DNA from: a virus
IMG/VR virus record: IMGVR_UViG_3300045988_151387
DNA length: 38,763 bases
Direction: 5' to 3' (one strand)
This document shows, in pieces, positions 16,921-38,763 of this stretch (the stretch's first letter is position 1; the number at the start of each line of letters is the position of its first letter). The notes under the pieces are model-generated. The model was not told where the DNA came from and did not search any database. It saw only the letters and a program-made list of their open reading frames with translations. The position numbers were made by a program, and so were the translations under genes.

Positions 16921-16924
16921 GATT

Positions 16925-17089: not shown

Positions 17090-17119
17090 TGCAAATAAAT
17101 TTATCGGAGGTAAAAGAAC

Positions 17120-17509: not shown

Positions 17510-17534
17510 AAGGAAGAGACAAAACCAATATTTA

Positions 17535-17741: not shown

Positions 17742-17754
17742 AGAAGGTGACTAA

Positions 17755-19623: not shown

Positions 19624-19665
19624 TTATAGATTACGTCCAAAACAAACGAAGAGAGGTGGTAATGT

Positions 19666-20613
19666 TTGGATGGAGAAGTAAAAGCAACAAATGCAGAACT
19701 TGCCTATCAGGATTACCTAAAAGGCATGAAGTACAAAGAAATAGCCGAGAAATATGGCGTGACCATAAATACAGTAAAATCCTGGAAGACCAGATACAAA
19801 TGGTCAAAGGATAGTAAAAAAAGTGTGCACACAAAAACAGGAAAGGTGTGCACACAAAAAAACAATAAAAACAATGTAAAAAAAGAAGCCATTGCAGAAG
19901 CGGTTGATCAGGTGATAGAAAATGCTGAATTAACCGATAAGCAAAGGCTTTTTTGTGTTTTGTATGTCAAGTGTTTTAATGCTACAAAGGCGTATCAGAA
20001 AGCATATGAAGTAGATTACAATACTGCAGCATCTATAGGGTATAGATCGTTGGAGAATGATGGAGTAAAAAAAGAAATACAAAGATTAAAGAAAAACCGC
20101 CTAAACCGGGAAATGCTAGACGAATCCGATATCTTTCAGAAGTACATGGATATAGCCTTTTCAGATGTGACAGATTTTGTAGAATTTGGCCAGGAGGATG
20201 TACCAGCGATGGCAGTTTATGGACCGGTACAGGTAAAAGATGAGGAAACAGGAGAAAAGAAAACCCTCACGAAAAGAGTGAATGTTGTTCGTTTTAAAGA
20301 TTCCTCAGAAGTAGATGGAACCCTAATTGCAGAAGTAAAACAGGGAAAAGATGGTGCAAGCATTAAACTGCCGGACAGAATGAAAGCTCTGGAATGGCTT
20401 GCAGAGCATATGGATATGGCAACAAAAGAACAGCAAATCAGAATAAGACGTGCAGAATTTGCCATGAATCAGGAACTTGGAAATCATGATGAGGATAACG
20501 AAAACATTGCTTCCTTCCTGAAAGCTATGAGCCCAGATCAAGAAGATATAAATAAATTGTTCCAGAAAGAGGAAGAGGATGCCGAAGAAAAAGAAGAGAC
20601 CAGCGAGATTTGA
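19666..20613 (+). CDS. terS: Terminase small subunit
   Basis: TTG start after gagaggtgg. N-terminal HTH ([24 protein letters not shown]). [26 protein letters not shown] (Terminase_2-type). Confidence 0.8.
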
Positions 20614-21892: not shown

Positions 21893-21901
21893 GAGGAGCA
21901 C

Positions 21902-23416: not shown

Positions 23417-23426
23417 GTGGTTTTAA

Positions 23427-25043
23427 ATGGGATTGCTGGAAAATCAGGAAGAGGCTGACAGAGTTTCAACGCTATATCGAAATTTAGAAGATAGGCTCAT
23501 GGCAAATATTATACGTCATTGCAGAACCTATAAGCAGCCGATTGATTCTGATAACTGGCTGCTTCAAAGGATGGCTGAGATTGGAAAATTAAACAGGGAA
23601 CATATAAAAATAATTGCCCAAAGCACGGGGATTTCCATGACAGCCATGGAACGCCTTTTAAAAGAAGCGGCTGATAATGCAATTTCAAAAGTAGAGCCAG
23701 GATTGCAGGAGCTGCTCAGGCAGGGGCTGGTGGAAGAAGCTGTGGAAGTAGACAAGAGCAAAGGTATAAAAAGAGTTATGAAAGCCTTCCATGACCAGGC
23801 AAAAGACACTTTAAATATGTGCAATACCACAATGCTATACAAAGCCAGAGATGCATATAAGAGATTGGTGCAAGATATCGCTGGAAGGGCGAAAGAGGTG
23901 GAAAACAAACCTTCTTTCTTGGCAACCATGAATAAACATGCTACCTCTGCTGTATTTGGAGCAGAATCTAGGCAGCAGGTGGTAAAAAACTGCATACAGG
24001 ATTTTAACAGAAAGGGAATTCCAGCTTTTGTAGATAAAAAAGGCAGGGAATGGACACCAGAAGCGTATGTGAATATGGCAATGAGGAACACGGTAAAAAG
24101 TGTTGCGGAACAGGTTCAGGATGAACGCTTTAAGGACTATGGGCAGGATTTAATAGAAATTGACAGCCATCCAGGTTCCAGACCCAAATGTGCAAAAGAC
24201 CAGGGAAAGATTTACAGTCTTTCCAATAAGCGTGGGAAAACAACAGATGCCCGTGGAAGAGAGATTGAGTATATTCCATGGAAAGATAGTAGCTATGGAG
24301 AACCAGATGGAATCCTTGGCATTAATTGCAGCCATCATAAATGGCTGTTCTTTCCTGGGAAAAGTATTAGAAGATACTTCCCTACAGAGGACATGGAAGA
24401 AAACAACCGTCTCTACAAACAGACACAAGTACAAAGAGCCTATGAACGTGCGGTAAGGCGGCAGAAACGGTTATGCATGGAGCTGGACAGTATAGGAGAT
24501 GAAGAAGGTTTCAAAGAAGCATCTGTAAAATTAAAGCAGAAAGAAGCCAAACTAAAAGAATATGTAGACAAGCATGAATTTCTACATAGAAGAAAAGACC
24601 GAGAGCAGGTTATAGGATTTGACCGAAGCAACAGTGCCAAAGCAGTAGCTGCAAAGAAAGCCTATACAAAAGCAATGGAAACTGATACAATACCAGTAAA
24701 GGATATTAAGATTCCAAAGAGTGTTGGAGCAAAATTCAAAAATTATAAGGTTGTGGATAAAACAACAGGGGTAGAATATGAATTTGCTCCGGGAACCAGA
24801 ATACAAAACGGAGAAGTTTTTGCTGGAAAGGGTACCAGGCATCCGCTTCACGAAGGAGTTGCAGAAGGTTTATCGAAGGAATTTGGCGGAACACCATCAA
24901 AATGGCAGCATGCAAAAGGTTTTGGGGTATTGCAGGATGAAGAAACAGGAGAGGAATTACAGGCAGAAGTACACTGGTTCCAGGAAGAAACCGTTGGGAA
25001 GGTTAAGTTTAAGGTGAAGAGGTGGCTGGATGATGAAGGTTAA
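23427..25043 (+). CDS. Minor capsid / head morphogenesis protein (SPP1 gp7 / Mu F-like) with a C-terminal extension of about 115 aa
   Basis: Follows the portal. Conserved core ...PDGILGINCSHHKWLFFPG... Confidence 0.7.
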   Translation: MGLLENQEEADRVSTLYRNLEDRLMANIIRHCRTYKQPIDSDNWLLQRMAEIGKLNREHIKIIAQSTGISMTAMERLLKEAADNAISKVEPGLQELLRQGLVEEAVEVDKSKGIKRVMKAFHDQAKDTLNMCNTTMLYKARDAYKRLVQDIAGRAKEVENKPSFLATMNKHATSAVFGAESRQQVVKNCIQDFNRKGIPAFVDKKGREWTPEAYVNMAMRNTVKSVAEQVQDERFKDYGQDLIEIDSHPGSRPKCAKDQGKIYSLSNKRGKTTDARGREIEYIPWKDSSYGEPDGILGINCSHHKWLFFPGKSIRRYFPTEDMEENNRLYKQTQVQRAYERAVRRQKRLCMELDSIGDEEGFKEASVKLKQKEAKLKEYVDKHEFLHRRKDREQVIGFDRSNSAKAVAAKKAYTKAMETDTIPVKDIKIPKSVGAKFKNYKVVDKTTGVEYEFAPGTRIQNGEVFAGKGTRHPLHEGVAEGLSKEFGGTPSKWQHAKGFGVLQDEETGEELQAEVHWFQEETVGKVKFKVKRWLDDEG

Positions 25044-25191
25044 ATTTATTGGAAAGACCGAGTTTTTGGTTTTAACAAATGGGAAAATATATGATGTGTT
25101 GTCTGTAGAGAAAGGTTTTTACAGAATTGTAGATGATTCAGGAGAGGATTATTTATATCCTCCAAAATATTTTGAAGTTGTAGAAGAATAA
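25030..25191 (+). CDS. Small 53-aa protein, hypothetical
   Basis: Overlaps the upstream stop. Sequence MMKVKFIGKTEFLVLTNGKIYDVLSVEKGFYRIVDDSGEDYLYPPKYFEVVEE. Not in the ORF track. Confidence 0.45.
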   Translation: MMKVKFIGKTEFLVLTNGKIYDVLSVEKGFYRIVDDSGEDYLYPPKYFEVVEE

Positions 25192-25222
25192 CCACCAGTC
25201 ATAATTGGCCGGTGGTATTTTT
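25191..25222 (+). terminator. Rho-independent terminator (weak)
   Basis: accacc...ggtggt stem followed by attttt. Confidence 0.45.
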
Positions 25223-25253
25223 GTACCCATTTTTAGGAGGGAGTGATACAAGA

Positions 25254-25559
25254 TTGATTGTAGTAAACATTACACCTACAGGCCTTACCATAGATGGCCA
25301 TGCAGGATATGCAAAAACAGGAAATGATATCATTTGTGCAGCAGTTTCAGCCTTGGCACAAAACCTGGTAAGTTCCATAGAGGCACTTACCAGGGATAAA
25401 ATTCTTTGCCAGGTAAAAGACGGGCACATGGATATAAAATGGGAGAATCTTTCAGAACAGGGAAAGCTGCTGGTGGATTCTTTTTTTCTTGGCATTTGCG
25501 GAATCTCCAACACATACGGGGAGAACTACGTAAAAGCTACGTCCAGAATGTGCGTATGA
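25254..25559 (+). CDS. prp: Prp-family cysteine protease (ribosomal-processing protease homologue)
   Basis: TTG start after aggaggga. GLTIDGHAGYAKTGNDIICAAVSALAQ contains the His...Cys dyad typical of Prp/DUF464. Confidence 0.75.
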   Translation: MIVVNITPTGLTIDGHAGYAKTGNDIICAAVSALAQNLVSSIEALTRDKILCQVKDGHMDIKWENLSEQGKLLVDSFFLGICGISNTYGENYVKATSRMCV

Positions 25560-25609
25560 CGTAAAACTATGCATGAGAAAGTCGGCGGACATAAAACGGG
25601 AGGTAAAAG

Positions 25610-26206
25610 ATGCCTAAATTTAGGAACAACAGATATGGAGTAAGTATGAACCTGCAGCTTTTTGCTGAGGGAGGAGACACCGGGGCAGATGCCGGGGATG
25701 GTGACGACCAGGACGATACCGAAGGTGGTGCGGACGAAGGCGGGGAAGACGAACCAAAATACACACAGGCAGACATTGACAAGGCAGTGGCCAGAACCAT
25801 TGCAAAGGAAAGGGCAAAGGCTGAGAGGGCTGCTAAGCGGAAGACAGAAAAAGAAAATTCTGGTGGTTCGGACGGGAAGGAAACCAATGAAGAGCTGGAA
25901 GAAGCAAGAAATAAGGCATCCAAAGCAGAGACAAAGGTTGCCTGCTATGAAGCTGGGGTAGCGAAAGATGCGGTGGATGATGTGGCAGCCCTGGCACATT
26001 CTTATATGCAGGCAGATGATTCCCTTGACCTGGAAGATGCCATTGAAAAAGTGGTAAAGAAATATCCTCACTTCAAAGGAAAACCGGAAAAAGAAGAGGA
26101 GGAAGAGGAAAACAAAGCATGGGGAGAACGGCAGCGCAGGGGAGGCAGCAAAATCTCAGGCGTGGAAGCTGCCTTCTTAAAGAAAAACCCAGGACTTAAA
26201 ATCTAG
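25610..26206 (+). CDS. Scaffolding protein with an N-terminal Prp cleavage motif
   Basis: RBS gggaggt. MPKFRNNRYGVSMNLQLFAEGG. Acidic then helical charged body. Lies before the capsid gene. Confidence 0.75.
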   Translation: MPKFRNNRYGVSMNLQLFAEGGDTGADAGDGDDQDDTEGGADEGGEDEPKYTQADIDKAVARTIAKERAKAERAAKRKTEKENSGGSDGKETNEELEEARNKASKAETKVACYEAGVAKDAVDDVAALAHSYMQADDSLDLEDAIEKVVKKYPHFKGKPEKEEEEEENKAWGERQRRGGSKISGVEAAFLKKNPGLKI

Positions 26207-26220
26207 GAGGAAAGCAGAGT

Positions 26221-27351
26221 ATGAAATTTAAATTCTTTTTATTACAGTTATTTGCACATGAGCACCAGGAAAGATGGTCTAAACTGGTGCTTGCAAAGTT
26301 AAGAAACGAACTGGTACTGAAGGATGGCGTGGTATTTAACAATGACTACGAAGGTTCTCCGGCAGCAGGAATTGTAAAAATCCCAGTTCGTGATGAAGAG
26401 GTAGTAGTAAGTGACTACGATAAGGCAAACGGTATCCAGGGAACGCATGGTTCCACAAAATATGAGAACATGCCTATCACAAAAGATAAAGCAATCAACG
26501 AAATCATTGACGGGTATGATTCCAAAGCGGTACCGGATAACCTGGTTGCAGATCGTCTGGACTCTGCCTCTTACATGATGGCAAAACAGATTGATACAGA
26601 TGGCGGCACAACACTTCTGGCAGCAGCTACCGTAGACAATGAAACGGAACTTACAAAGGACAACATCTACGGGAAAATCGTAGATATCCGAACCAGAATG
26701 AATAAAGCCAATATTCCAAATGATGGAAAGCGTTATATCTTGGCTGTACCGGATGCCATGGCATTGATTTTAAAATCCCCGGAATTTATTTCCGCATCTT
26801 CCCTTGGGGATGAAGTGAAAGTAACTGGTGCGGTAGGTAAGATTGCCGGATTCCTGGTAATTGAATGGAATGATACCACTGCCAACTTAATGATGTTAGC
26901 AGGACATCCAAGATTTGCCACACGTGCCATGGACTTTTCCGTTCCAATCCACCTGCAGGATTTATCCGGATCCGGAAAATATATTGGTGCTTCTGCAGTA
27001 CAGGGGCGTAAAGTGTATGACCATAAGGTTCTCCGAAGTGTTGCAATCCGTGCAATTTACTCTCCTGGTTCTCTGGTGCTTTCTGCAGCAGCTGGGGCAG
27101 CGGCAGGAACTACCAAAGTAACAGTAAATGCTGGAAATTCCGGTACTACTTACACTTACAAGAAGAACCCTGCAACAAGAGCCATCTACGATATGACCAC
27201 AGCGAAATATGCAGGTACAGCGCTTACCAGCGGAACCACAGAGATTGCAGTAACAGAAGGGGATATTATTGAGGTAGTAAACCTTGTGGCTGGAAAAGTG
27301 GCAAATGTAGGTTACTTAACCGTAAAAGCAGGACAGATTAAAACATCCTAA
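26221..27351 (+). CDS. Major capsid protein (N-terminal LQLFA propeptide motif)
   Basis: RBS aggagga. 376 aa, after the scaffold. MKFKFFLLQLFAHEH. Confidence 0.8.
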   Translation: MKFKFFLLQLFAHEHQERWSKLVLAKLRNELVLKDGVVFNNDYEGSPAAGIVKIPVRDEEVVVSDYDKANGIQGTHGSTKYENMPITKDKAINEIIDGYDSKAVPDNLVADRLDSASYMMAKQIDTDGGTTLLAAATVDNETELTKDNIYGKIVDIRTRMNKANIPNDGKRYILAVPDAMALILKSPEFISASSLGDEVKVTGAVGKIAGFLVIEWNDTTANLMMLAGHPRFATRAMDFSVPIHLQDLSGSGKYIGASAVQGRKVYDHKVLRSVAIRAIYSPGSLVLSAAAGAAAGTTKVTVNAGNSGTTYTYKKNPATRAIYDMTTAKYAGTALTSGTTEIAVTEGDIIEVVNLVAGKVANVGYLTVKAGQIKTS

Positions 27352-27361
27352 GGAGTAGAAT

Positions 27362-27751
27362 ATGGCATATGTAACACAGGATTACTACTTAAAAGATTTT
27401 CATGGGGAAGCAGTCCAGGAGGCTGACTTTCCCTCCCTTGAGGAACGTGCAGCAGAAATCATAGAAGAACTGTGCATGTACCGTATAAAGGAAAGCAATA
27501 TGGAAAGTTACAGCCCAGATATCCAGGAACGTATCAAAAAGGGCATATGTGCCCAGATAGAGTACCTGGATGCCAATGGAGGCAGTGAGATGGACAATGG
27601 GGTAGATATTCAGAGTGCAGGCCTTGGAAAGTTTAACTATACCAAGGTGTCTGGAACAGCTGGAAATCAGGGACAATCCATCTATTCCCCCAGGGCAAGG
27701 CGGATTCTTGCCCCTACAGGACTTTTATACAGAGGAGGCGGATGTTTATGA
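27362..27751 (+). CDS. Head-tail connector (gp6-like) protein
   Basis: Position and size. Confidence 0.5.
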   Translation: MAYVTQDYYLKDFHGEAVQEADFPSLEERAAEIIEELCMYRIKESNMESYSPDIQERIKKGICAQIEYLDANGGSEMDNGVDIQSAGLGKFNYTKVSGTAGNQGQSIYSPRARRILAPTGLLYRGGGCL

Positions 27752-28089
27752 GGGCAATTCCAAAAGCTCTTCTAATCCATACGATAACGCTGCACAAGAA
27801 AGAAAATGAAGACAGATGGGGAAATGGAAATCTGGATACAGGAATTACCATACAATATGTACGTATGGAACCGTCAAGCAAAATCATCAGGGACAAAAAT
27901 AATGCAGAAATACAGCTTTCCGCCACGTTGTTTTATGACTGTAGAAATAGTTTACCTAGAGATATAAAGTTTGTGAAAGATGATATTGTTTCGTTTAATG
28001 GAGAAAAGTACAGGATAGAAACAATAGAGTCTTTATATGACAGGGAACGCTTACATCATTATGAAATGGGGTTGGTAAAGGGTGGCTAA
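27742..28089 (+). CDS. Head closure / head-tail adaptor protein
   Basis: Position and size. Overlapping start. Confidence 0.45.
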   Translation: MFMRAIPKALLIHTITLHKKENEDRWGNGNLDTGITIQYVRMEPSSKIIRDKNNAEIQLSATLFYDCRNSLPRDIKFVKDDIVSFNGEKYRIETIESLYDRERLHHYEMGLVKGG

Positions 28090-28486
28090 TATAAAGGCGA
28101 AGGTTACATTTGACAAAGCTGCAGCATTGGCCAGATTACATGCGGCCAGCGATAAAGCATTAACCATCATGGGGCAGCAGGCATTAGGAGATATCACACA
28201 ACATGTACCGGTAGACCAAGGAGGTTTACAGAATAGTGGTATTTCGAGTAGTGATAACGTAGCGGAAAACGGAGAATATGTTTTGCGTTGGGATGAACCT
28301 TATGCACAATATCTTTTCCATGGAGAAGTTATGTACGGAAATCCAACAAACCGTACCTATGGTCCTAAAAAGATATCCTTCACAAGTGCCATGGCCAAAA
28401 TGGAATGGACAAAATATGCAGAACAGGTATATGGAGAAGACTGGCAGGCAGTATATCAGGCAGCCTTTAGGGAGGAATTGAGATAA
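28082..28486 (+). CDS. HK97 gp10-like tail-completion / neck protein
   Basis: ITQHVPVDQGGLQNSG...WDEPYAQYLFHG resembles the gp10-family signature. Confidence 0.55.
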   Translation: MANIKAKVTFDKAAALARLHAASDKALTIMGQQALGDITQHVPVDQGGLQNSGISSSDNVAENGEYVLRWDEPYAQYLFHGEVMYGNPTNRTYGPKKISFTSAMAKMEWTKYAEQVYGEDWQAVYQAAFREELR

Positions 28487-28869
28487 TGTTAAAAGAATTT
28501 ATGAACACCCTTGTGGAGACTGCAGAACAGCATTGCAGCCTTAGCGGCTCAATATCTTTAAAAGAACTTCCGGCAGAGGGTGGTCTATATGCAGAGCCAG
28601 GGCAAGGGTTTGAAGTGGCCAAGTATTATGATAAAACAGGAATCCATACTCTTCCAGTGTTGTTTCTTTGTAGAAATAAAGACCAGATAAAGTGTATAGA
28701 CCAGTTGGAGAGCATCTGTAATTATTTTACCCGTTTGAAGGAATACCCAAAAGGAGAACAATTTGCCTGGCTGAATACCGAGGTGGCAAAAGGGGTAAGT
28801 AGGGTAGGACGGGATGCGGATGGAGTGTATCACTATTCTTGTATTTTGAACTGTAAACTATATTTTTAA
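28486..28869 (+). CDS. Tail terminator-like protein
   Basis: Position directly before the tail tube gene. Confidence 0.4.
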   Translation: MLKEFMNTLVETAEQHCSLSGSISLKELPAEGGLYAEPGQGFEVAKYYDKTGIHTLPVLFLCRNKDQIKCIDQLESICNYFTRLKEYPKGEQFAWLNTEVAKGVSRVGRDADGVYHYSCILNCKLYF

Positions 28870-28884
28870 GAAAGGAACATTGCA

Positions 28885-29379
28885 ATGAAAAAGTGGGATT
28901 TACAGCAGTTTGCTGAAGTATTACCTAAAAATACAATTACACCAGAACTGAACTATGAAACAGAAGCATTTATTAATACCAGTCCAGAAGCTGGCGCAGC
29001 CACATGGGAAAGCCTCGCTGCCTTGACTAAGAATATGGCGGAATCTTTAAATGAAGTCCTTTATCAGACTGCTTATTATGCAGATAAGGGATGGGGAAGT
29101 ACAGAAGTTACAGGGGCACAGCTTACGCTTACCTTAACAGGAGATTGCAAGCCTACAGACAAGGCATATGAATATATTACCAGTGAAAAGGTAATGTATG
29201 GATTTGGGGAAGCAAGAAAAACCCATATGAAATTGACAAAAGGTGATAAATATGTGATCTGGCCTATCACATTGGCAAATATCACAAAAGGAAGAGGAGA
29301 TTCTTCTGCCACAAATGCCTTGACAGTAACGATCCACGGAAACGGAAAACCGGTTCTTGGTACCGTGGAAGAGCCTTGA
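28885..29379 (+). CDS. Major tail (tube) protein
   Basis: Position and size (164 aa). RBS gaaagga. Confidence 0.6.
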   Translation: MKKWDLQQFAEVLPKNTITPELNYETEAFINTSPEAGAATWESLAALTKNMAESLNEVLYQTAYYADKGWGSTEVTGAQLTLTLTGDCKPTDKAYEYITSEKVMYGFGEARKTHMKLTKGDKYVIWPITLANITKGRGDSSATNALTVTIHGNGKPVLGTVEEP

Positions 29380-29397
29380 TTTTGGAGGTGACAAATT

Positions 29398-29844
29398 ATG
29401 GCTTATCAAGCGAAAAAGAGAAAAACATTTGCAGAAGATTTGGAGTTAGTAGACGAACATGGAAGTGTAGTACATACACTCCATGTTAGCCTGGATGCGG
29501 ACGATATGGTAGCAAAGCTCAACAGGAAATATGCAGAACTGACTAAGAGCTTGGCGGAAGTATCCGAAATCCAAAGGAATGTAGAAAACAATGAAAAGAT
29601 GAATGAAGCGTTTGAAAAACTGGGAAGTGCAGTGACAAATCTTTTTGAGGCTGTCTTCGGAAAGGAAGATACAGAGCTTATCATATCGTTTTATGAGGGA
29701 AGATACATTGAAATGACAAAGGAGATTACTCCTTTTATTACTCAGTGCGTGATTCCCAGGTGCATTGAGATTAAAAAGGAAAACCAGAAGAGTATTTTAA
29801 ACTCTTATAACAGAAAGCAGAGAATGGCACTTTTCAGAAGGTGA
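29398..29844 (+). CDS. Tail assembly chaperone
   Basis: Lies between the tube and tape measure genes. Acidic/helical. Confidence 0.5.
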   Translation: MAYQAKKRKTFAEDLELVDEHGSVVHTLHVSLDADDMVAKLNRKYAELTKSLAEVSEIQRNVENNEKMNEAFEKLGSAVTNLFEAVFGKEDTELIISFYEGRYIEMTKEITPFITQCVIPRCIEIKKENQKSILNSYNRKQRMALFRR

Positions 29845-29848
29845 GTAA

Positions 29849-30457
29849 ATGGGATTCCTAACAGAAGCAATTGAGGAGAAGGTCGTTTACCAAAAAAGAA
29901 AATACTGGGTTAATGCATCTTTTGACACAGTCTTGCAGATACAGAGCCTGTTCAGGGAAGAGGAACTTCCAGAGAGTTTAAAGCTGCAGCAGGCTCTTAA
30001 AATGCTTCTGGTACATGATAGAACTTTTATGAGACTGCCTACAGAGAGTAAAAAAGAACTTCTCCATTTAATTTTTGAATGCTGCATTAATACACAGAAA
30101 AGACCAGAAACAAGAACAAAAGAGCAGAAAACCTTTGATTTTGAGTATGATGGAGAGTATATTTATGCTTCCTTTATGTTGGACTATGGGATTGACTTGG
30201 TAGATATGCAGGGGAAGCTACATTGGAAAAAGTTCATTTCTTTGTTCCAGGGACTGTCTGAGCGGACTAAAATAAGAGAGGTTATGCGGATACGCACCAT
30301 GGATATTCCAAAGTTTACAGGAAAAAACAGTAAACAGATACAGGAAATCCAGGAACTGAAATCTTATTATGCTCTTCCTGTGAAGGGAGGGGGAGGACAA
30401 CAGGGGTTAGATGCTCTGTTTTCAACGCTGGAAAGAATGGCGGTGAAAAATGGATAG
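29849..30457 (+). CDS. Gp15-like second tail chaperone
   Basis: Own RBS aaggtgag. By position and my recollection of the family (Bacteriophage Gp15). Confidence 0.45.
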   Translation: MGFLTEAIEEKVVYQKRKYWVNASFDTVLQIQSLFREEELPESLKLQQALKMLLVHDRTFMRLPTESKKELLHLIFECCINTQKRPETRTKEQKTFDFEYDGEYIYASFMLDYGIDLVDMQGKLHWKKFISLFQGLSERTKIREVMRIRTMDIPKFTGKNSKQIQEIQELKSYYALPVKGGGGQQGLDALFSTLERMAVKNG

Positions 30458-30608
30458 AACAGACACAAAAACTATGAAAAAGGCAGTGTGCCCGTATTGT
30501 GGCACACCAATCAATGCTTTTTATCGTAAAGACGCCAAGTGTGAGGGCGTCTTTTTTCGGTGCAAAAATAAGAAAAACTGTGGGAAACAATTTGAATTAA
30601 GAATTTAA
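30450..30608 (+). CDS. Small zinc-ribbon protein (52 aa, Cys-rich KTR-like)
   Basis: CPYCG...CEGVFFRCKNKKNCG. Not in the ORF track. Confidence 0.45.
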   Translation: MDRTDTKTMKKAVCPYCGTPINAFYRKDAKCEGVFFRCKNKKNCGKQFELRI

Positions 30609-30660
30609 AAGACGCTGTGCCTTTGTGCCTGTCTTACTAAATAAAGGCAGGTGATATAGC

Positions 30661-33207
30661 ATGGCAAAGAAAGATAGCGAGATTACCTACGTCATAAGTG
30701 CAGACGATAGTAATTTAGAAACGGATCTGGATAAAGCAGAAGAAAAGGTAAAGAAATCTACAAAGAAAGTGGAACAGGCAGCAGAACAGTCGGGAAAGAA
30801 AGTAGAACAAGAGACAAAAAGAAGCGTATCTAAGACAACCAGAACCCACGAACAGGGAAATGAGGATATAGAAAAATCTCATAAAAAATCCGGTGAAGAG
30901 AGAAAAAAGACGGAACGGGACATTGGAGAAGCCATGTCTCAGATTGCAGAATCTGCCTGTGGAGAGATTGGAGTTTCTTTTGAAAAAATAGTTTCCATTG
31001 CAAAAAGCCCTGTGGCAGCAGGAGCAGCTGGGGCAGCGGCTATAGCTGGTGTTGGTGTGGCTGCTGTCAATACTGCTGTGGACATAGACTCTGCTATGAA
31101 TCAGCTACAGGCAAGCACAGGTCTTGCGGCGGAAGAAACCGAGAATTATCGGCAGGTAATGGAAGGGGTTTATAAAAACAATTACGGTGAAAGTTTTGGA
31201 GAGATTGCAGATGTAATTGGAAAAATACGGCAGCAGGTAGGCGGGGTTGTAGATTCATGGGAACCAGAGGCACTACAAGGAATGGTAGAATCTGCTTTTG
31301 CTTTACAGGATATTTCAGGAGGAGCACTAGACGTTGAAAATTCTGTAAGGGCTGCAAGTACAATGATGGAGCAGTTTGGCATTGGCGGAGACGAAGCCTT
31401 AAGCATGATTGCAGCTGGATATCAAAATGGGCTGGACTACTCAGGAGAACTTCTGGACAGCATATCAGAATATTCCGTTCAATTTGAAAAAGTAGGTTTA
31501 GGTGCAGATGATATGTTTGCCATCTTTGAAAAAGGTGCAAAATCAGGTGCATTTAATCTGGACAAAGTCGGTGATGCTGTAAAAGAAATGGCCATTCGTG
31601 TTGTGGATGGTTCCGATACTACGAAGCAAGGATTTGAATTAATCGGTCTTAATGCAGATGAAATGGCTGCAAAATTTGCGGCTGGAGGAGACTCTGCAAA
31701 AGAAGCCTTTAAGCAAACAATTTCTGCACTTGCAGGATTAGAAGACCCATTGGCTCAAAACACTGCAGGGGTAGATTTGTTTGGAACTATGTGGGAAGAC
31801 CTAGGACCGGAGGCAGTAACTGCCCTTGCAGATATAGAGGATGGAGCGTATGACACTGCAAATGCAATGGAAGGCATCAAAGACGTAAAGTATGATGATC
31901 TCGGTTCCCAATTGGAAACACTGAAACGCAATGTAGAGATGCTTCTGGTGCCGCTAGGGGAATCTTTAATTCCTATTTTAAGTGATATGATGGAGGAAAT
32001 CCTGCCACCACTTATGGAAATTTTAGAACCTCTTTTAGGGCTTATAGAAGCCTTGTTGGAGCCATTGTTGGCTATGGCAGGGGAAATCTTAGAGCCACTG
32101 GTAGAAATTCTTTCAGAATTATTAGAACCTCTGATACAGATAATTGAAGAATGTCTGACGCCGCTGTTTGATTTAATAGAACAGTTGCTAGAACCGTTAT
32201 TGGAACTGATTGATACCTGTGTACGTCCGTTGTTGGAACTGGTGATGGAACTCATTGAACCGTTACTGCAGGTAATAACAGAATGTCTGGAACCCTTGAT
32301 AGAAGTTTTTACAGAACTTTTCGACCCTATTTTTAACTTGATAGAAAGTGCGCTGAAACCGCTGCTGGAACTGTTAGAACCATTGGTAGAGTTTATTTCT
32401 ACAGTATTGACACCTATTTTGGAGATTTTAATGCAGGTGTTCCAGGCTGTTTTTGAAACAATAGCAAATTATGTTCTGGAAAAAGTCGAAATTGTGCAAG
32501 GCGTACTAGACAATTTTGTAGGATTTATCAAAAATGTCTTTACTGGAAATTGGAAAGGTGCATGGGAAAATGTAAAAAACATTTTTACAGGAATCATGGA
32601 CCTTTTGCCTGGATATGTCCAGGGAATCATAGGAAACATAGGCGGAATATTAGATAGTCTGATAGATTTCATTAAAAATGTTTTCTCAGGAAACTGGTCT
32701 GGCGCATGGCAAAATATTCTTGATATTTTAAAAGGAATCTGGGATGGCATAGTTGGTGTTTTTAAAGCACCGCTAAACGCCATTGTAGACGCATGGAATA
32801 GACTGGTGAGTAGTATTGGAAGTATAGAAGTTCCAGATTGGGTTCCAGGAATAGGCGGTGGAACCTTTTCGCTGCCGAAACTTCCAAGATTAAAAATTGG
32901 TATGGATTATGTACCAAGTGATTTTTATCCGGCTTTTCTGGATGAAGGAGAGGCTGTTTTGACAAAGGAGGAAAACCGTCTTTATAGAGATTTAGGGGGA
33001 CTGCAAGGTATGTATAATCTGACGGGAATAAAAGATATACCACAGGAGCCTACATCCTTTCCAGATTTTGACTATAAACGGATGGGGGAAGAAACTGCAA
33101 AGTCTCTGGAAGGTATGGGAATATACCTAAATGAAGAAAAAGTAGGGGAAGTCATTACCCCGTCTGTCAACAATAACATGGGTATCATAGAGAGGAGGCG
33201 GCGTTAA
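30661..33207 (+). CDS. Tape measure protein
   Basis: 848 aa. Charged N-terminus, Ala/Gly hydrophobic segment, long (I/L)EPL(L/I) helical repeats. Lies upstream of Dit. Confidence 0.9.
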   Translation: MAKKDSEITYVISADDSNLETDLDKAEEKVKKSTKKVEQAAEQSGKKVEQETKRSVSKTTRTHEQGNEDIEKSHKKSGEERKKTERDIGEAMSQIAESACGEIGVSFEKIVSIAKSPVAAGAAGAAAIAGVGVAAVNTAVDIDSAMNQLQASTGLAAEETENYRQVMEGVYKNNYGESFGEIADVIGKIRQQVGGVVDSWEPEALQGMVESAFALQDISGGALDVENSVRAASTMMEQFGIGGDEALSMIAAGYQNGLDYSGELLDSISEYSVQFEKVGLGADDMFAIFEKGAKSGAFNLDKVGDAVKEMAIRVVDGSDTTKQGFELIGLNADEMAAKFAAGGDSAKEAFKQTISALAGLEDPLAQNTAGVDLFGTMWEDLGPEAVTALADIEDGAYDTANAMEGIKDVKYDDLGSQLETLKRNVEMLLVPLGESLIPILSDMMEEILPPLMEILEPLLGLIEALLEPLLAMAGEILEPLVEILSELLEPLIQIIEECLTPLFDLIEQLLEPLLELIDTCVRPLLELVMELIEPLLQVITECLEPLIEVFTELFDPIFNLIESALKPLLELLEPLVEFISTVLTPILEILMQVFQAVFETIANYVLEKVEIVQGVLDNFVGFIKNVFTGNWKGAWENVKNIFTGIMDLLPGYVQGIIGNIGGILDSLIDFIKNVFSGNWSGAWQNILDILKGIWDGIVGVFKAPLNAIVDAWNRLVSSIGSIEVPDWVPGIGGGTFSLPKLPRLKIGMDYVPSDFYPAFLDEGEAVLTKEENRLYRDLGGLQGMYNLTGIKDIPQEPTSFPDFDYKRMGEETAKSLEGMGIYLNEEKVGEVITPSVNNNMGIIERRRR

Positions 33208-33943
33208 TGGGGCAAAGATAAACGGGAAACATATTGAGAAAGACTACGGATGCAGGCTGTTTGAAATTGAAATTGGAATCCCGGAAACCATCTCGAAAAG
33301 AGAACAGCTTCCTGGCAGCAACCAATACATAAATACAGGAAATCAAGGTATTTATGAGCAGCGCCCTATCCGTCTGGCCGGAGATTGTACCGGTGATTAT
33401 GAGCAGTGGCTCAAACAGATTTCGGAGATTGCAGATGATATCAACGGAAAAGAAGTAACCCTGGAGCTGGATGCAGAACCGGGGTTTTATTATTACGGGA
33501 TTGCTTCGGTATCTACAAAGAAGGAAAACGGCGTGATATCCACCTTTGAAATGAACATCCAGGCCGACCCATTTAAATATCAAAATTACCAGGCAGTCAC
33601 GATTAGCCAGGCGACTAGTACAAAGATGGTTGTTCAGGGGGATTTTGAAACACCCTGTATCATAGAACTCACCCCCATAAACGATACCATATCCTTCACT
33701 ATCAAGGGAGCAGCAAGAAATCCTGTTACCGGACAACCGGAGGATATTACCATTAAGAATCTAAAGCAAGGGAAAAAGGTCATCATAGACGGGGAAGCCT
33801 GCACCGTGCTGCAGGGCGTAACGAATAAGTTTGCAGATGCAGACATGTGGGAATTTCCTTCCCTGTTGCCAGGGAATAACACCCTTACCTTTTCCAGCGC
33901 TTTATGTGAAGTCACTATAAAATATAAACCACGTTATTTTTAA
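33207..33943 (+). CDS. Distal tail protein (Dit); the reading frame is broken 2 codons after the start
   Basis: The Dit-like frame is open from 33191 (…INGKHIEKDYGCRLFEIEIGIPE...LELDAEPGFYYYG...) but has no ATG/GTG/TTG before 33533. ATG 33207, with RBS ggagg 9 nt upstream, is in another frame (atg ggg caa aga taa). One extra G in the GGGG run restores a 245-aa protein. Confidence 0.6.
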
Positions 33944-33956
33944 GGAGGAAAACAGT

Positions 33957-34208
33957 ATGTTAAAAGGCAGTAAAAGTGTATCTTTAAGTTTTCAAAGCAT
34001 GGTAGGGGACCAGGTAGCCATCTACATGAGTGCCCAGATTCTGGAAAACGGAAAAAGCAACTCGAACATGACCATTCAGGACCTGGAACTCTACGAAGCA
34101 AATAAGACAGAGTGCAGAAAAGATATGAATGAATTTAATAACATGCTCTGGGAGCTGGAAGACCAGAATGCGAAGGCAGAGGAACCAGGAACGGAGGAAA
34201 TGGTATGA
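33957..34208 (+). CDS. Hypothetical protein in the tail module
   Basis: RBS aaggagg. Confidence 0.55.
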   Translation: MLKGSKSVSLSFQSMVGDQVAIYMSAQILENGKSNSNMTIQDLELYEANKTECRKDMNEFNNMLWELEDQNAKAEEPGTEEMV

Positions 34209-34594
34209 GAGTGAGCAATTTACAGATTTTGACCTTATCCAAAGCCATGCCGGACATCCGGAAGAAGATGCTGCCTATTAAATTGGGCTTTGCCATCAAC
34301 AAGAATATCCAGGCAGTCAAAGGCATCTCGGAAGCCTACAACGAGGAGCAGGGAAAAATCCTGGATAAATACTGTAATAAGGACGAACAGGGGAATTACC
34401 TTGCAAAAGAGGACCGGTATGATATCACAGACTGGGACGGCTACAACAAGGAAATGAAAGAGCTTTTAAAAATCGAAAATGAGGTAGCTGTCCACACCAT
34501 TCCATTGGAAGAAGTGGAAAAGTGCGGTACCGGAAAATTTGACACCTTAACACCAGAAGAGTTGGAACTTCTGGAATTTATGATTGAGGAATAA
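34205..34594 (+). CDS. Hypothetical protein in the tail module
   Basis: RBS ggagga. Overlaps the previous stop. Confidence 0.55.
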   Translation: MRVSNLQILTLSKAMPDIRKKMLPIKLGFAINKNIQAVKGISEAYNEEQGKILDKYCNKDEQGNYLAKEDRYDITDWDGYNKEMKELLKIENEVAVHTIPLEEVEKCGTGKFDTLTPEELELLEFMIEE

Positions 34595-34612
34595 GCGAAA
34601 GGAGGGGCTTAC

Positions 34613-37600
34613 ATGCTTCGTATCCTGGACAAGAACAAAGCCCCTGTAAAAGGCTTACGGGTATATAAAGATTTGTGCATAGAGAGGGTCTTGGAACTGG
34701 ATGATAAGACACTCTCTTTTTCTGTCCCATACCGCAACATCAGGGACAGCCTGGAGTTGGAAGGCTACATAGAGACCAAAACAGACCGGTTTGTGGTAAG
34801 GGAAATGAAAAAGTCCACAGACGGTTATGTAAATGTAGTGGCACAGCTGGATATGGAGGACCTGGAAGGGAAAGCCTTCCGGGTTTTTAAAACCACAGAG
34901 CAGACCATCCAGGCAGCCTTGCAGCTTGCCTTTGCCGGAACGGGATGGACGATAAAAGAAAGCTGCATCACAAAAAAGCGTACTCTGTCCATGTCCAACG
35001 TGTCTGCTATGGAGATTCTAAAGCAGGCATTAAAAACCTATCGGGCAGAGATTACCGTAGATTCTAAAGCACGTACAATCTCCATTTTTGAGTCGGTTGG
35101 ACAGGACAAAGGAGCCTATTTTGCCAGCAAATTAAATTTAAAGAAGCTGACCGTGCAAAGCACCAGTTACGATTTCTACACAGAAATAGAACCTTACGGC
35201 AAAGACGGCCTCACAATCGAATCCGTAAACGGCGGTAAGAATTATGTGAGCAATTACCAGTACAGCAGCAAGAGCAAACGCCTGATCTGGAAGGATGAAC
35301 GTTACACGGTACCGGAATCTTTAAAAGCAGATGCACAGGCAAAGCTCTTGGACATGAGCAAACCTTACAGCTCCTACAGCGCCGATATCATAGACCTGGC
35401 GAAACAGTCTGAGAAATACTCTATCTTAGAATACGGAATTGGGGACACCGTAACCATCCTGGATGGTATTACAGAGACCAGGGAGAAGCAGCGGATTGTT
35501 GGCATCAAAGAATATCCGGAGGAACCAAGCCGGAACACCTGCACCCTGGCAAATAAAGTCCTGACCTTTGATGAGCTGGCGCAAAAGTATGAGGATGCAG
35601 CCAATACGGTAGATAACATTACAAACGATAACGGGCAGATAGACGGGGACACCATAGACGGCATCCACAGCAGGCAGATTGTAGACCTGGAAAATGCCAT
35701 TGTCCAGTCTGCAACGATTATAGACCTGACAACAAAATACTTGCAGGTAACCGGCAAATTAACCGCTGTAGAAGGTGAGTTCGGAAAGCTGACTGCCAAT
35801 GTGGCCGAGTTTGAGCAGGCCACAATTCAGAAACTGGATGCCTTTGAAGCCACTATCCAGGACTTGAAGGTAACGGATTTAAGTGCCATGAATGCCAAAA
35901 TCCAGGTGCTGGAAGCTACCAGTGCAAATATTAAGTCTCTGTTGTCTGGCAATGCAGGAATCGGGGACTTGCAGAACATCCACCTGACCTCTGCCAATGC
36001 GGTGATTGACAGCGCATTGATAAGAAATGCGGTTATGCAGACCGTAACCATTGGGGATTTGCTTGCCGGAACCATTAGTACAAATAAGTTCCGCATCCAG
36101 TCGGATGATGGCGGTATTTCCATTTCAGGGGCAACCCAGCAGTGGAGAGATGCCAAAGGCACAGTAAGGATGCAGGCCGGAAGAGATGCAAAAGGAGACT
36201 TTACCTTTTCCCTCTTTGACGCAACGGGCAAAGGCGTTTTGATAGATGCCACCGGAATTAAACCAGGAGCCATTGCAGATGGATTGATTGTTAATGACAT
36301 GGTAGCCGACAACGCTGCCATTTCAGGGGACAAGCTGGATATTACCAGTGTGATTCAATCCATTAACGGAAGCAAGGAGACTATCAACAGCAGCCGTATC
36401 TGGTTCGATTCTAAAAGCCAGAATCTGAATCAAATATACAGCCAGATGTCCAATGACATTATCGTAGCCGGAAACGCTGCTGATGCCGCCCAGGATGCCG
36501 CGCAAAAAGCTCTGGACGCCATAGACGGGATAGATACCTTAGATGCCATTAGTGCAGTCCTAGACAACGAAGCTCATGTGGTGCACACCAATCCAGATGG
36601 TTCCGGTGGGGATTATTCTGGTGCTGTGACAAAAATAACGGTGTATTCTGGGGATGCAGACGTTTCCGGTCAGGCAACCTATGAGGTCTATAAGTCTGCT
36701 GGAATAACAGGGACATGGGATGCTAAGACACGCACCTACAGAGTAACCGGCATGACTACAGATAACGGATATGTAGATTTAGATGCTCTGTATGGCACAG
36801 GCGGAAAATACGCTGTTACCAGGACGGGTGCAAAGTTAAAAACAAGAACAGGGAAATACCTGGTGGTCCGTACCGGCGGTTCCCATATCCGAAAGAGATT
36901 TTCTGTAAGCAAAGCCAAGGATGGAAAGATAGGGGTATCTTATACCTTGCAGTGCAGCACTTTAGTTCTTCGGAAACAGCAAAATGGCACCTTACAGCCA
37001 GCATCCGTAACCTTTAGCGCCAAATACAATGACGGAACTTTCTTAACCGCCTACTCCGGCAGATACAAGATTGAGGAGAGTGTAGACGGAACCACTTATG
37101 TACAGAAATATCTCTCTGCAAAAGATGAAGCACAGAAAACCTATACCCCTTCCAGTTCGGGGCTGAAATCCATCCGCTGTACCCTCTACGCATCCGGCGG
37201 AGGTGGGGAACTGGACAGCCAGTCGGTGATTGTTCTGACAGATGCGGAAGGTCTAGCCGAGGATATCCAGGAAGTCCGTGAGGGGATGCAGGTGATTAAA
37301 TCGGATGTGACAAATATCCAGACCGGCATGGAGGGAATACGGGCAAATATCTCCAGCATGAGCACAGAACTGACAGGGCTTACCGACAACACACTGCTGT
37401 ACAACATCCAGTACAACGATAATGAAAATAACACCGTAACTCTAACCGCAAAGGTCTACAAAGATGGGAAAGACGTAACAAAGACCTTCCCAAGCCGGTG
37501 GTTTACCTGGTACGCAAAGAGTGAATCTGGGAACAAATATATCGGATATGGGTACGGGATAACGGTAAACAAGAACAACGTAGGCTTTGGAAGCACCTAC

Positions 37601-37705
37601 ATAGGGCGCTTTACTACCTACGAGACACGCCGCCTTACCACACGGAAAGGGGCATACTTAACCACCAGGACAAAGAAGTATCTCACAACCTGGGTGGAAA
37701 ATTGA
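34613..37705 (+). CDS. Tail-associated (Tal) / minor structural tail-tip protein, 1030 aa
   Basis: The N-terminus MLRILDKNKAPVKGL...LSFSVPYRN is typical of the phage minor structural protein N-terminal / prophage-tail region. Central coiled coil. Lies after Dit. Confidence 0.75.
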   Translation: MLRILDKNKAPVKGLRVYKDLCIERVLELDDKTLSFSVPYRNIRDSLELEGYIETKTDRFVVREMKKSTDGYVNVVAQLDMEDLEGKAFRVFKTTEQTIQAALQLAFAGTGWTIKESCITKKRTLSMSNVSAMEILKQALKTYRAEITVDSKARTISIFESVGQDKGAYFASKLNLKKLTVQSTSYDFYTEIEPYGKDGLTIESVNGGKNYVSNYQYSSKSKRLIWKDERYTVPESLKADAQAKLLDMSKPYSSYSADIIDLAKQSEKYSILEYGIGDTVTILDGITETREKQRIVGIKEYPEEPSRNTCTLANKVLTFDELAQKYEDAANTVDNITNDNGQIDGDTIDGIHSRQIVDLENAIVQSATIIDLTTKYLQVTGKLTAVEGEFGKLTANVAEFEQATIQKLDAFEATIQDLKVTDLSAMNAKIQVLEATSANIKSLLSGNAGIGDLQNIHLTSANAVIDSALIRNAVMQTVTIGDLLAGTISTNKFRIQSDDGGISISGATQQWRDAKGTVRMQAGRDAKGDFTFSLFDATGKGVLIDATGIKPGAIADGLIVNDMVADNAAISGDKLDITSVIQSINGSKETINSSRIWFDSKSQNLNQIYSQMSNDIIVAGNAADAAQDAAQKALDAIDGIDTLDAISAVLDNEAHVVHTNPDGSGGDYSGAVTKITVYSGDADVSGQATYEVYKSAGITGTWDAKTRTYRVTGMTTDNGYVDLDALYGTGGKYAVTRTGAKLKTRTGKYLVVRTGGSHIRKRFSVSKAKDGKIGVSYTLQCSTLVLRKQQNGTLQPASVTFSAKYNDGTFLTAYSGRYKIEESVDGTTYVQKYLSAKDEAQKTYTPSSSGLKSIRCTLYASGGGGELDSQSVIVLTDAEGLAEDIQEVREGMQVIKSDVTNIQTGMEGIRANISSMSTELTGLTDNTLLYNIQYNDNENNTVTLTAKVYKDGKDVTKTFPSRWFTWYAKSESGNKYIGYGYGITVNKNNVGFGSTYIGRFTTYETRRLTTRKGAYLTTRTKKYLTTWVEN

Positions 37706-37718: not shown

Positions 37719-38267
37719 ATGGCAGACCAGATGATTAACGGATTACCAGTAAAGACAGCACCACAGGCAGGGGACAAGCTCTTAGTGATAGGGGCAGCGG
37801 AAGAACAATTGATTGATTATGATAAGCTGGCAGATGCTATCCTGAATAAACTGACAAGTAAATCATTTACTTTAGATCAGGGAACTATGACATTACTTGC
37901 TGCACTGAATGCACTAAATAGTAAAATAGAAAGAAGCGGTGGCGTATATGTTGATTTGGGCAGTTGCCTAAAAACAATTGGTTTAGAAATAAAAGAATAT
38001 ACCTGTGAAACATTATTAAAGGCAATGCCACGTAACACCTATCTTCGCTTTACATACAACAAAGAAAGAGATTTGAAGCATATTAGTAATTTACCTATCG
38101 AATACGGTCTTGTAAGTATCTTTGCTGGTAATACAGAGAACTACAATATCATTTTTGCTGTTAGCAACAGACAGTTAGGCGATATCTATTTATATGAACA
38201 AGATGCAAATATTAACGGAGATGATGGCTGGGTGAGGTTTGCAACCACACAAGTCATCAATGAATGA
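37719..38267 (+). CDS. Small tail fibre / receptor-binding protein: constant N-terminal module (aa 1-68) fused to C-terminal cassette A (114 aa)
   Basis: RBS gaaaggag. Lies directly after Tal. N-terminus MADQMINGLPVKTAPQAGDKLLVIG... Site S1 lies at the codons for A65-L-N-S68. Confidence 0.7.
   Translation: MADQMINGLPVKTAPQAGDKLLVIGAAEEQLIDYDKLADAILNKLTSKSFTLDQGTMTLLAALNALNSKIERSGGVYVDLGSCLKTIGLEIKEYTCETLLKAMPRNTYLRFTYNKERDLKHISNLPIEYGLVSIFAGNTENYNIIFAVSNRQLGDIYLYEQDANINGDDGWVRFATTQVINE
37910..37924 (+). repeat. Candidate recombination site S1 (TGCACTAAATAGTAA) inside the expressed gene
   Basis: A 17-bp perfect inverted repeat with 38599-38615. Same 15-bp consensus as S3 and S4. Confidence 0.8.
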
Positions 38268-38293
38268 TATTTAAGTTTCTTTTTCTCCATTTA

Positions 38294-38615
38294 TCATAGT
38301 AATGTTTTTATATCCAAAAAGCCTGTATGAATAATAAGCATTTCAGAACTTTGTATAAAATTTGCACGAACTTCCCCGGTTTCCTGGTCTACAGACCACT
38401 CTTTCGTACCGGAGGTTCTGGCGACAAAGCCTCTGCCTGGGTCATAATGTGCTGCAACTACCTCATGAATCACTCCGGACGTATTGTCACATCCAACTAT
38501 TATAGCGGAACGTTTCGCCCATGATACTTTTGGAATTTTTAAGGCAAGCCCTTTTCCAGAAGTGCCTAGGCTAATGTGTTTACAGCTCATACCAGAAGTT
38601 TTACTATTTAGTGCA
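38294..38615 (-). other. Silent C-terminal cassette B (about 102 aa after ALNS), inverted orientation
   Basis: The reverse complement reads cgt gca cta aat agt aaa act = RALNSKT, in phase. The only upstream start is a GTG abutting aggag with zero spacing, so independent translation is unlikely. Confidence 0.65.
38601..38615 (-). repeat. Candidate recombination site S2 (reverse complement TGCACTAAATAGTAA), inverted orientation
   Basis: The plus strand reads ttactatttagtgca. It is identical to S1 over 17 bp as a reverse complement. Confidence 0.8.
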
Positions 38616-38620
38616 CGAGA

Positions 38621-38667
38621 CACCTCCTGATTTTGGTATCATAAAAATATCAAAAAAACAGGAGGTG
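38621..38667 (+). promoter_or_regulatory. 9-bp perfect inverted repeat cacctcctg / caggaggtg; the distal arm is the recombinase Shine-Dalgarno
   Basis: Arms at 38621-38629 and 38659-38667 with a 29-nt A/T-rich spacer. The spacer contains a possible extended -10 (tggtatcat, 38634-38642). Confidence 0.45.
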
Positions 38668-38671
38668 CCTT

Positions 38672-38763
38672 ATGAAAACAGAGGTAATAACGGCTATCTT
38701 ACAGCAGATGGCTCCGCATCTAAAGGAAAGCCAGATGGCAGAGTTAAAAGGGGCGTTGTATAT
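38672..38763 (+). CDS. 5' end of the tyrosine recombinase gene (continues at base 1 through the 55-bp overlap)
   Basis: ATG 38672 lies 5 nt after caggaggtg. MKTEVITAILQQMAPHLKESQMAELKG... is in frame with ORF 27..956. Confidence 0.85.
   Translation, partial: MKTEVITAILQQMAPHLKESQMAELKGALY
38709..38763. repeat. Terminal overlap copy (identical to 1-55)
   Basis: See feature 1-55. Confidence 0.95.

Follow-up and report, generated by a model that had tools for sequence, protein, structure and literature searches.

Organisation of the locus

The virus sequence IMGVR_UViG_3300045988_151387 (38,763 nucleotides; 'the window' below means this whole stretch, to which all coordinates refer) carries in its tail module a small gene, a tyrosine recombinase gene and three further coding segments that together very probably form an active, programmed switch (shufflon), in which the recombinase exchanges the head of a tail protein. 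Window positions 1–55 are identical to 38709–38763, and this 55-bp terminal direct repeat indicates that the contig is circular, with a length of 38,708 bp. The locus therefore wraps around the window ends, and the recombinase gene is split between them (Table 1).

The locus is organised by four copies (S1–S4) of a 15-bp motif. A search of the whole genome for TGNNCTAAATAGTAA, allowing one mismatch, found these four positions and no others, whereas shuffled sequence gave a mean of 0.15 matches and four matches in none of 100 shuffles. The inverted repeat made by S1 and S2 is perfect over 17 nt (37910–37926 and 38599–38615). S1 lies within the 182-aa gene that follows the gene for the tail-tip protein Tal, where it encodes A65-L-N-S68, and the frame CTA AAT AGT is the same through all four sites. 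Beyond ..LNS the frames stay open to a stop for 114, 102, 102 and 100 codons, defining cassettes A, B, C and D, which are laid out as two tail-to-tail pairs, [A><B] and [C><D], one on each side of the recombinase gene. No pairwise similarity was detected among the four cassettes, and a search for a hidden site between the tail-to-tail cassettes, or for similarity between the pairs, gave nothing above chance 10–12-mers. A preliminary description of the window, made from its letters alone, had listed the four occurrences of the motif, the inverted repeat, the placing of S1 in a gene led by a ribosome-binding site (RBS), the in-phase frames of 100–102 codons after S2, S3 and S4, the divergence and tail-to-tail order of the cassettes, and an intact tyrosine recombinase between S2 and S3, and all of these were reproduced here.

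That description had also held that cassettes B, C and D have no usable start of their own. Gene callers do place open reading frames (ORFs) composed of leader and cassette at S2 and S3, but at S2 the Shine-Dalgarno sequence overlaps the GTG, and at S3 the frame of the leader is not kept in close relatives. The cassettes are therefore best read as silent, as had been supposed, and the 124-aa ORFs called at the leader of S3 (lead3) are leader-plus-cassette artefacts.

Table 1. Features of the locus and of its neighbours (const, constant module; positions refer to the window)
Feature	Position	Strand	Evidence and remarks
Tal-like tail-tip protein, 1030 aa	34613..37705	+	PF06605 Prophage_tail 2.7e-48; PHROG tail families; directly upstream of switchable gene
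Switchable gene in this arrangement, const + cassette A, 182 aa	37719..38267	+	AAGGAG RBS; exact protein in ~504 contigs
Constant 68-aa N-terminal module, ending ..AALNALNS	37719..37922	+	Homology of at least 851 protein clusters stops near its end
S1, TGCACTAAATAGTAA, inside expressed gene	37910..37924	+	Junction point in all rearranged contigs
Cassette A, 114-aa head	37923..38267	+	Elsewhere joined to const, x23rc, lead3 or rightrc flanks
Cassette B (silent in this arrangement), 102 aa, facing A tail to tail	38294..38602	-	const+B = P0020, 3–4 contigs
S2	38601..38615	-	Motif search; inverted repeat with S1
5' leader hairpin over recombinase RBS and AUG	38614..38674	+	RNA fold -25.3 kcal/mol, z -5.4, 0/200 shuffles as good
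Tyrosine recombinase gene, 5' part	38672..38763	+	Continues at window base 56 (1–55 duplicate 38709–38763)
Tyrosine recombinase gene, remainder (330 aa in all)	1..956	+	Xer-like; PF00589 1e-35, PF13495
lead3, non-coding leader between recombinase gene and S3	957..1051	+	Frame into cassette not conserved in relatives
S3, TGCGCTAAATAGTAA	1052..1066	+	Motif search
Cassette C, 102 aa, silent here	1065..1373	+	const+C = P0032, 14–16 contigs
Cassette D (silent in this arrangement), 100 aa, facing C tail to tail with overlapping stop codons	1366..1668	-	const+D = P0045, 8–9 contigs
S4, TGAACTAAATAGTAA	1667..1681	-	Motif search
Tail fibre, 475 aa, C-terminal S74 chaperone domain, fixed right-hand neighbour	1758..3185	+	PF13884 1.6e-12; PHROG tail fibre
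Large serine recombinase, 511 aa	5133..6668	-	PF00239 + PF07508 + PF13408; PHROG 95 integrase 2e-111

Rearranged forms in public assemblies

The predicted fusion proteins were written out and looked up by exact sequence in ~15 billion public proteins. All four versions of 168–182 aa that had been foreseen are present: const+A (182 aa) in ~504 contigs, const+B (170 aa) in 3, const+C (170 aa) in 14 and const+D (168 aa) in 8. The reciprocal fusions at lead3, visible as a spurious called ORF, were found with C in 539 contigs, with D in 2, with A in 13 and with B in 7. When contigs were fetched and mapped to labelled segments of the window, their DNA was 100% identical to the window, yet stood in four arrangements: const[A><B]-rec-[C><D], which is that of the window (arrangement 1), const[B><A]-rec-[D><C] (arrangement 2), const[C><D]-rec-[A><B] (arrangement 3) and const[D><C]-rec-[B><A] (arrangement 4).

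All 16 combinations of flank and cassette were found, each broken inside the 11-bp core CTAAATAGTAA; at every junction the four variable bases upstream of the core are those of the flank, and the bases downstream of it are those of the cassette. The chimeric const+B and const+D junctions for which the preliminary description had called are among them, in the DNA of assembled contigs and with their breakpoints in the core. The family of the related locus L001 inverts even though one of its sites does not have the CTA, which places the crossover within AAATAGTAA. One haplotype of ~7.7 kb without a single-nucleotide polymorphism (SNP), covering Tal, recombinase and fibre, occurs in all four arrangements, and every non-reference arrangement is present on a second haplotype as well. 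Source samples and assemblers differ, and the long-read assembly L028 is concordant. That rearrangement occurs at the four sites is on this evidence close to certain.

One arrangement accounts for ~95% of contigs. An unbiased sample of arrangements could not be drawn, since a 60-nt pattern from the recombinase gene had no match among JGI metagenome contigs or GTDB genomes and in IMG/VR matched the L001 contig alone, and IMG/VR scans with the site pattern (14 specified bases) gave only chance single matches among the matches listed. In the long-read assemblies L021 (2014–2965) and L028 (2554–2895), both treated with polypolish, the slot-1 consensus is garbled, with overlapping matches to A and C of ~84%, such as a mixed population might give. 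The same two contigs have helix-turn-helix and DUF6017 genes after the tail fibre in place of holin and lysin.

The block 37625..1775, including the constant module, is identical in L005, L021 and L028, while the Tal and fibre flanks differ by 4–5%, and the boundaries of the identical block lie ~95–290 bp outside the sites. An identical block between diverged flanks indicates that the shufflon block has been exchanged by homologous recombination.

Some contigs and proteins show other joins. In L013 (4524–4527, window 13529/37242) and L016 (3880–4342, window 14356/../37060) the replication module runs straight into the 3' end of Tal, and ~23 kb with the genes for packaging, head and tail are gone; the end points differ, the samples are different and both contigs are in arrangement 3. 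These may be defective deletion derivatives or chimeric assemblies. Protein P0063 (363 aa, from a 2.1-kb contig) is a bacterial nucleotidyltransferase-like protein fused to ..LNALNS and cassette A, and in P0013 the first ~270 residues of Tal are followed by the 19 C-terminal residues of the recombinase; both may stem from chimeric contigs or from off-target recombination.

Double-exchange arrangements of the cassettes

The matchings of flank to cassette that were seen are the identity, (AB)(CD), (AC)(BD) and (AD)(BC) (scored in L007, L010, L011, L013–L017, L022–L025, L027 and L028), which are the products expected if two pairs of sites recombine at once, and the orientation of the recombinase gene is always kept. 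The paired counts of const and lead3 fusions (3/2, 14/13 and 8/7) agree with double exchange, and ~20 phased non-reference contigs included no const+B with lead3+C, no const+A with lead3+D and no inverted recombinase.

This bears on the routes that had been proposed. The preliminary description had cassette A replaced in frame by B or D through inversion between S1 and S2 or between S1 and S4, and C reached only after an S3×S4 flip. Exact const+B, const+D and const+C fusions do exist, but no simple S1×S2 or S1×S4 product was found and C was seen only in a double-exchange arrangement, not by the predicted route. Arrangement 3, which is the commonest variant, swaps the pairs without inverting them; this needs either four inversions or one excision and one reintegration, and is most easily reached by the latter. 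Models worked by hand that allow only inversion, allow only excision and reintegration, or divide the sites into classes did not yield the observed set without an added rule, namely that arrangements with an inverted recombinase gene do not persist.

Candidate explanations for the pattern are a coupled double exchange, short-lived intermediates, or selection; the coupling is something we infer. A further reading, which we consider unlikely, is that no single recombinase exchange survives, that exchanges are paired and that the released circle is a mobile platform for cassettes. It draws on the finding that ~20 of ~20 phased non-reference contigs are double-exchange products and on the existence of precise deletion products. 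Paired exchange might then take place in a synaptic complex of four sites, or a short-lived state might couple the exchanges obligatorily, and the three perfect pairings of the sites would make up a Klein-four set. Direct-repeat recombination would free a circle of recombinase, cassette pair and two sites, which could reinsert at any phage gene with the ..LNS core; as a mobile platform, such a circle would spread hundreds of head types among Lachnospiraceae phages. Given that the block has spread by homologous recombination, the independent events may be as few as three.

The recombinase and its leader

The domains of the recombinase are PF00589 and the SAM-like core-binding domain PF13495 only, an arm-binding domain not being found, and its catalytic residues R-K-H-R-H-Y align with those of XerD (1a0p). 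Between S2 and the start of the recombinase gene lie 56 nt whose predicted fold is a hairpin with the RBS and the AUG buried in it. Stems that sequester the RBS, of unlike sequence but in the same place, are present in every related locus examined (L285:5560–5635, L288:5222–5297, L001:5935–6015, L269:4912–5010). The predicted fold suggests that the leader probably attenuates translation of the recombinase; with RBS and start codon buried in a strong hairpin the enzyme is probably made rarely, which fits the ~95% dominance of one arrangement.

Scans for promoters and terminators around the locus gave scores no better than shuffles. This includes a weak sigma-70-like match, TTTACA-17-TACTAT, at 38579–38607, with its -10 element inside S2 and its -35 element at the beginning of cassette B. 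Were this match real, the recombinase promoter would vary with the adjoining cassette.

Related loci

The architecture is conserved in three genera. Prophages of Sellimonas intestinalis and Drancourtella sp. have S1 (+), S2 (-), recombinase, S3 (+) and S4 (-) with the core ..AAC(T/A)AAATAGTAAGA, and the human-gut contig MT835621 has a 40% identical recombinase surrounded by four copies of a different core, TAAATGATAATTTAG. In the latter (L269, MT835621.1, 3683–7114) a 368-aa ORF starts right after the recombinase gene and spans S3, and slot 1 is taken up by one reverse cassette of 220 aa; there may thus be two different switchable genes in this relative.

Deletion products are also found among relatives. 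L286 is 99.6% identical to L285 minus exactly the S2–S4 DNA, recombinase included, and its junction consists of right flank, core and slot-1 cassette, which identifies it as a product of direct-repeat (S2×S4) recombination. The P0212 phage, listed in 64 collection blocks, is recombinase-less and has two cassettes, A' (94% nucleotide identity) and B' (90%); as a weak natural control, the collection does not contain the inverted fusion predicted for it. L277, whose recombinase gene is truncated and whose slot 1 is flipped, is a decayed locus. In L001 a B-like cassette is paired with a C-like one, which indicates that the pairs themselves have been reassorted over evolutionary time.

Xer-like genes in Terrisporobacter phage TPELB_ph1 and Clostridium perfringens phage phiCp-D were not counted as shufflons, there being no convincing repeated sites. 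In both, the Xer-like 'integrase' lies between the last tail gene and the holin (L266, 4899–5894, and L267, 4986–5963, respectively), and TPELB_ph1 has a second annotated integrase downstream. Transposases were met at two places: a DDE_3 transposase with a helix-turn-helix gene in the Dit region of one Blautia copy (L003:2814–3964 / L006:1–858) and an IS256-type transposase (PF00872) within slot 2 of a Sellimonas shufflon (L284:7461–8708).

The constant module and its family

A family search in 1.84 billion representatives (50% identity) gave 327 matches, 173 of them at E <= 1e-10, and with the native protein as query at least 851 protein clusters at 90% identity were found to be headed by the constant module. 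Family members are nearly all 145–180 aa long, and their homology ends at residues 68–72, in the motif A(L/I)(N/D)xLN(S/G), after which the sequences are unrelated. This module is the constant 68-aa N-terminal part of the preliminary description. Since family homology ends at the site, the final conserved residues of this widespread anchor are encoded by the recombination core. A concatenated query of const+A+B+C+D returned three distant matches only, an artefact of word-based candidate selection, and was discarded. AlphaFold2 models the N-terminal module as a helix (34–47), a hairpin (50–57) and a helix (59–73) with a predicted local distance difference test score (pLDDT) of ~80–88, the second helix crossing the crossover point. 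Foldseek of this module against PDB and BFVD matched only an uncharacterised family member.

Phage, host and gene neighbourhood

The phage is a temperate siphovirus with a circular genome, and its host is Blautia, of the B. hansenii group: the names on identical proteins give Blautia hansenii and Blautia sp. GBKS_5 as hosts, and one identical copy lies inside a 3.2-Mb contig. The gene order is tape measure (30661–33207), Dit-like, Tal, and the small switchable gene with the shufflon, followed by the S74 tail fibre, a holin and a GH25/LysM endolysin. The large serine recombinase, whose gene lies ~3.5 kb downstream of S4 and which is the sole serine recombinase found in the genome, is likely to be the true phage integrase; with a separate serine integrase present, the tyrosine enzyme need not be the integrase.

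Proposed mechanism and alternative explanations

We propose that the small tail gene is transcribed after Tal and that its first 68 codons are constant, ending in ..LNS, the last of them being encoded by the recombination core CTA AAT AGT AA. Four promoterless and unrelated heads of 100–114 codons, each beginning with the core in the same frame, would be stored as two tail-to-tail pairs flanking the recombinase gene. The embedded Xer-like tyrosine recombinase, in all likelihood the catalyst of the rearrangements, would exchange DNA within the core, with the crossover in AAATAGTAA, so that any cassette could be joined to the constant module to give a protein of 182, 170, 170 or 168 aa. Rare synthesis of the enzyme would leave arrangements stable enough to be inherited and assembled, and direct-repeat recombination, as in the relatives, would remove the recombinase and one cassette pair and leave a locked two-cassette locus. 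Judging from the position of the gene, the pattern of variation and analogy with other systems, we favour the view that the heads bind receptors and change host range.

Several points weigh against parts of this interpretation. The simplest products are absent, there being no single S1×S2 or S3×S4 inversion and no inverted recombinase gene, so that the mechanism is not that of a plain shufflon with independent inversions. Transfer of the block means that some apparently independent occurrences of an arrangement may be one event. The link between recombinase and rearrangement is drawn from sequence, and the natural control offered by the P0212 phage has low power (0 of ~64 where ~3 would be expected). 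As to function, the switchable protein has no Pfam, PHROG or PDB-sequence match in profile searches, the AlphaFold2 model of the head in const+A is poor (pLDDT <50), and only 4 of 135 relatives match adhesin- or fibre-like domains (H_lectin, BclA_C, Phage_fiber_rpt and DUF6273).

These last points leave some room for the possibility that the switch is real but that the protein has another role, for instance in tail decoration, assembly or counter-defence, with host range unchanged. No family, structure or fold match points to any function, and the 475-aa S74 tail fibre just downstream could be the real receptor binder. We nevertheless regard this as doubtful, since the gene lies between Tal and the tail fibre, a few heads in the family are H-type lectin or BclA_C domains, and a conserved anchor that carries hundreds of small, unrelated heads is what is seen in adhesins under diversifying selection. 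The analogous systems Rin, Min, Gin and Cin, moreover, all act on receptor binders (PMC6109161).

It is also conceivable, if improbable, that the four arrangements are old fixed alleles, each of which arose once and spread by homologous recombination, with no switching going on. The identity of the block 37625..1775 between flanks that differ by 4–5% would be explained in this way, as would the predominance of one arrangement in ~95% of contigs and the fact that no sample was seen with two cleanly assembled arrangements. Old alleles sit uneasily with the occurrence of all four arrangements on one zero-SNP haplotype, the cassettes likewise having zero SNPs, and with breakpoints that all fall at the 11-bp core. 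An intact recombinase and the four-site layout have been kept across genera, and the garbled slot-1 long-read consensus of L021 and L028 is what a mixed population would be expected to produce. We therefore prefer ongoing switching to fixed alleles.

A role for the tyrosine recombinase as a Xer-type enzyme of dimer resolution or integration, with a host or other enzyme carrying out the rearrangements, seems very improbable. Its best family matches are indeed XerA, XerC and XerD, and Xer-like genes between tail and lysis genes occur in TPELB_ph1 and phiCp-D without obvious repeated sites, but every NCBIfam score is below the curated cut-off (XerA 217.3 against 220, XerC 178 against 335, XerD 161 against 330). 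In Blautia, Sellimonas, Drancourtella and MT835621 the four sites invariably enclose the gene, which in the precise deletion product is gone along with one cassette pair. Where there is no such gene the inverted fusion is not found either, and the phage has a serine integrase of its own. Finally, that the alternative junctions are assembly artefacts can be discounted for all practical purposes: they do lie at short repeats and most of the contigs are short-read assemblies, but repeats of 11–17 bp are far below any assembler k-mer, so that junction k-mers need real reads, and identical junctions turn up in >25 contigs that come from different studies and pipelines, a long-read assembly among them.

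The programmed switch that we prefer defines a large unannotated family, in which a 68-aa anchor whose last codons double as a recombination site is followed by unrelated heads. If the heads bind receptors, one prophage would hold four host specificities, and its arrangement would matter for host-range prediction, for metagenomic phage-host matching and for the engineering of Lachnospiraceae phages. The locus is compact (2.8 kb, one enzyme, an 11-bp core) and could serve to study how a simple Xer-like enzyme chooses among inversion, deletion and pair swapping.

Comparison with known systems

Programmed DNA inversion or exchange of the C-terminal part of a tail protein is shared with Gin (Mu), Cin (P1), Min (p15B) and Pin (e14), of which Min is a multi-cassette version, as at the Blautia locus. 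Those systems use a small serine invertase with an enhancer/Fis requirement and have Proteobacteria as hosts, whereas the Blautia enzyme is of family PF00589 and a domain search found no serine invertase near the locus. The inverting hsdS loci (e.g. pneumococcal ivr) have in common with it an embedded tyrosine recombinase, silent partial genes and in-frame swaps at short inverted repeats; what they switch is a restriction enzyme's specificity subunit, encoded in a bacterial chromosome, rather than a phage gene, and domain searches found no hsdS-like domain at the Blautia locus.

The R64/IncI1 shufflon (Rci, sfx, pilV) is nearer in several respects, as it too combines a tyrosine recombinase, invertible segments made of two partial ORFs in opposite orientation, a fixed N-terminus with alternative C-termini (an adhesin in R64) and sites with one conserved and one degenerate arm. 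The gene is that of a plasmid pilus in R64 and of a phage tail in Blautia. Rci is not known to give anything but inversions, and R64 segments invert independently or in groups, whereas loci of the Blautia type show direct-repeat deletion (L286, with the P0212 phage having the same structure) and no single-segment inversion was seen.

The closest described system is the Rin shufflon, a tyrosine-recombinase switch of the receptor-binding protein known from phages of Bifidobacterium (Mavrich et al. 2018, PMC6109161) and from clade-1 prophages of Eggerthella lenta (PMC8778435). The preliminary description knew of no multi-cassette switch with a tyrosine recombinase in a phage of Firmicutes. We likewise found none described for Firmicutes phages in the literature searched, but the kind of system is known from these two reports. 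Rin and the Blautia locus share a phage tyrosine recombinase without arm-binding domain that is separate from the integrase, a constant N-terminal region (Rc) with promoterless and dissimilar C-terminal cassettes (Rv) in the tail module, short (8–11 bp) asymmetric crossover repeats both at the cassette starts and inside the expressed gene, and variant arrangements between genomes. As in Rin, the site is rare elsewhere in the genome (4 matches against 0.15 expected) and all full-length fusions are represented. This likeness is one of architecture, as described for Rin, and no Bifidobacterium phage was among the best tblastn matches.

The Blautia locus differs from Rin in its host, in its embedded recombinase and in pair swapping and deletion. 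The host belongs to the Bacillota (Lachnospiraceae), that of Rin to the Actinomycetota. In Blautia the recombinase gene separates two tail-to-tail pairs and has S2 and S3 on its two sides, where that of Rin stands at one end of a tandem array; the constant part, unlike that of Rin, is only 68 aa in a protein of 168–182 aa; and the core is CTAAATAGTAA in place of TTCCCTAACCC or ttccgtat. Pair swapping, precise deletion and arrangements restricted to double exchange, all unlike Rin, are documented for the Blautia locus and its relatives. Tail shufflons with a tyrosine recombinase thus reach beyond Actinobacteria and into a prevalent Firmicutes phage of the human gut, the expressed form of which is listed in 873 assembly-collection blocks.

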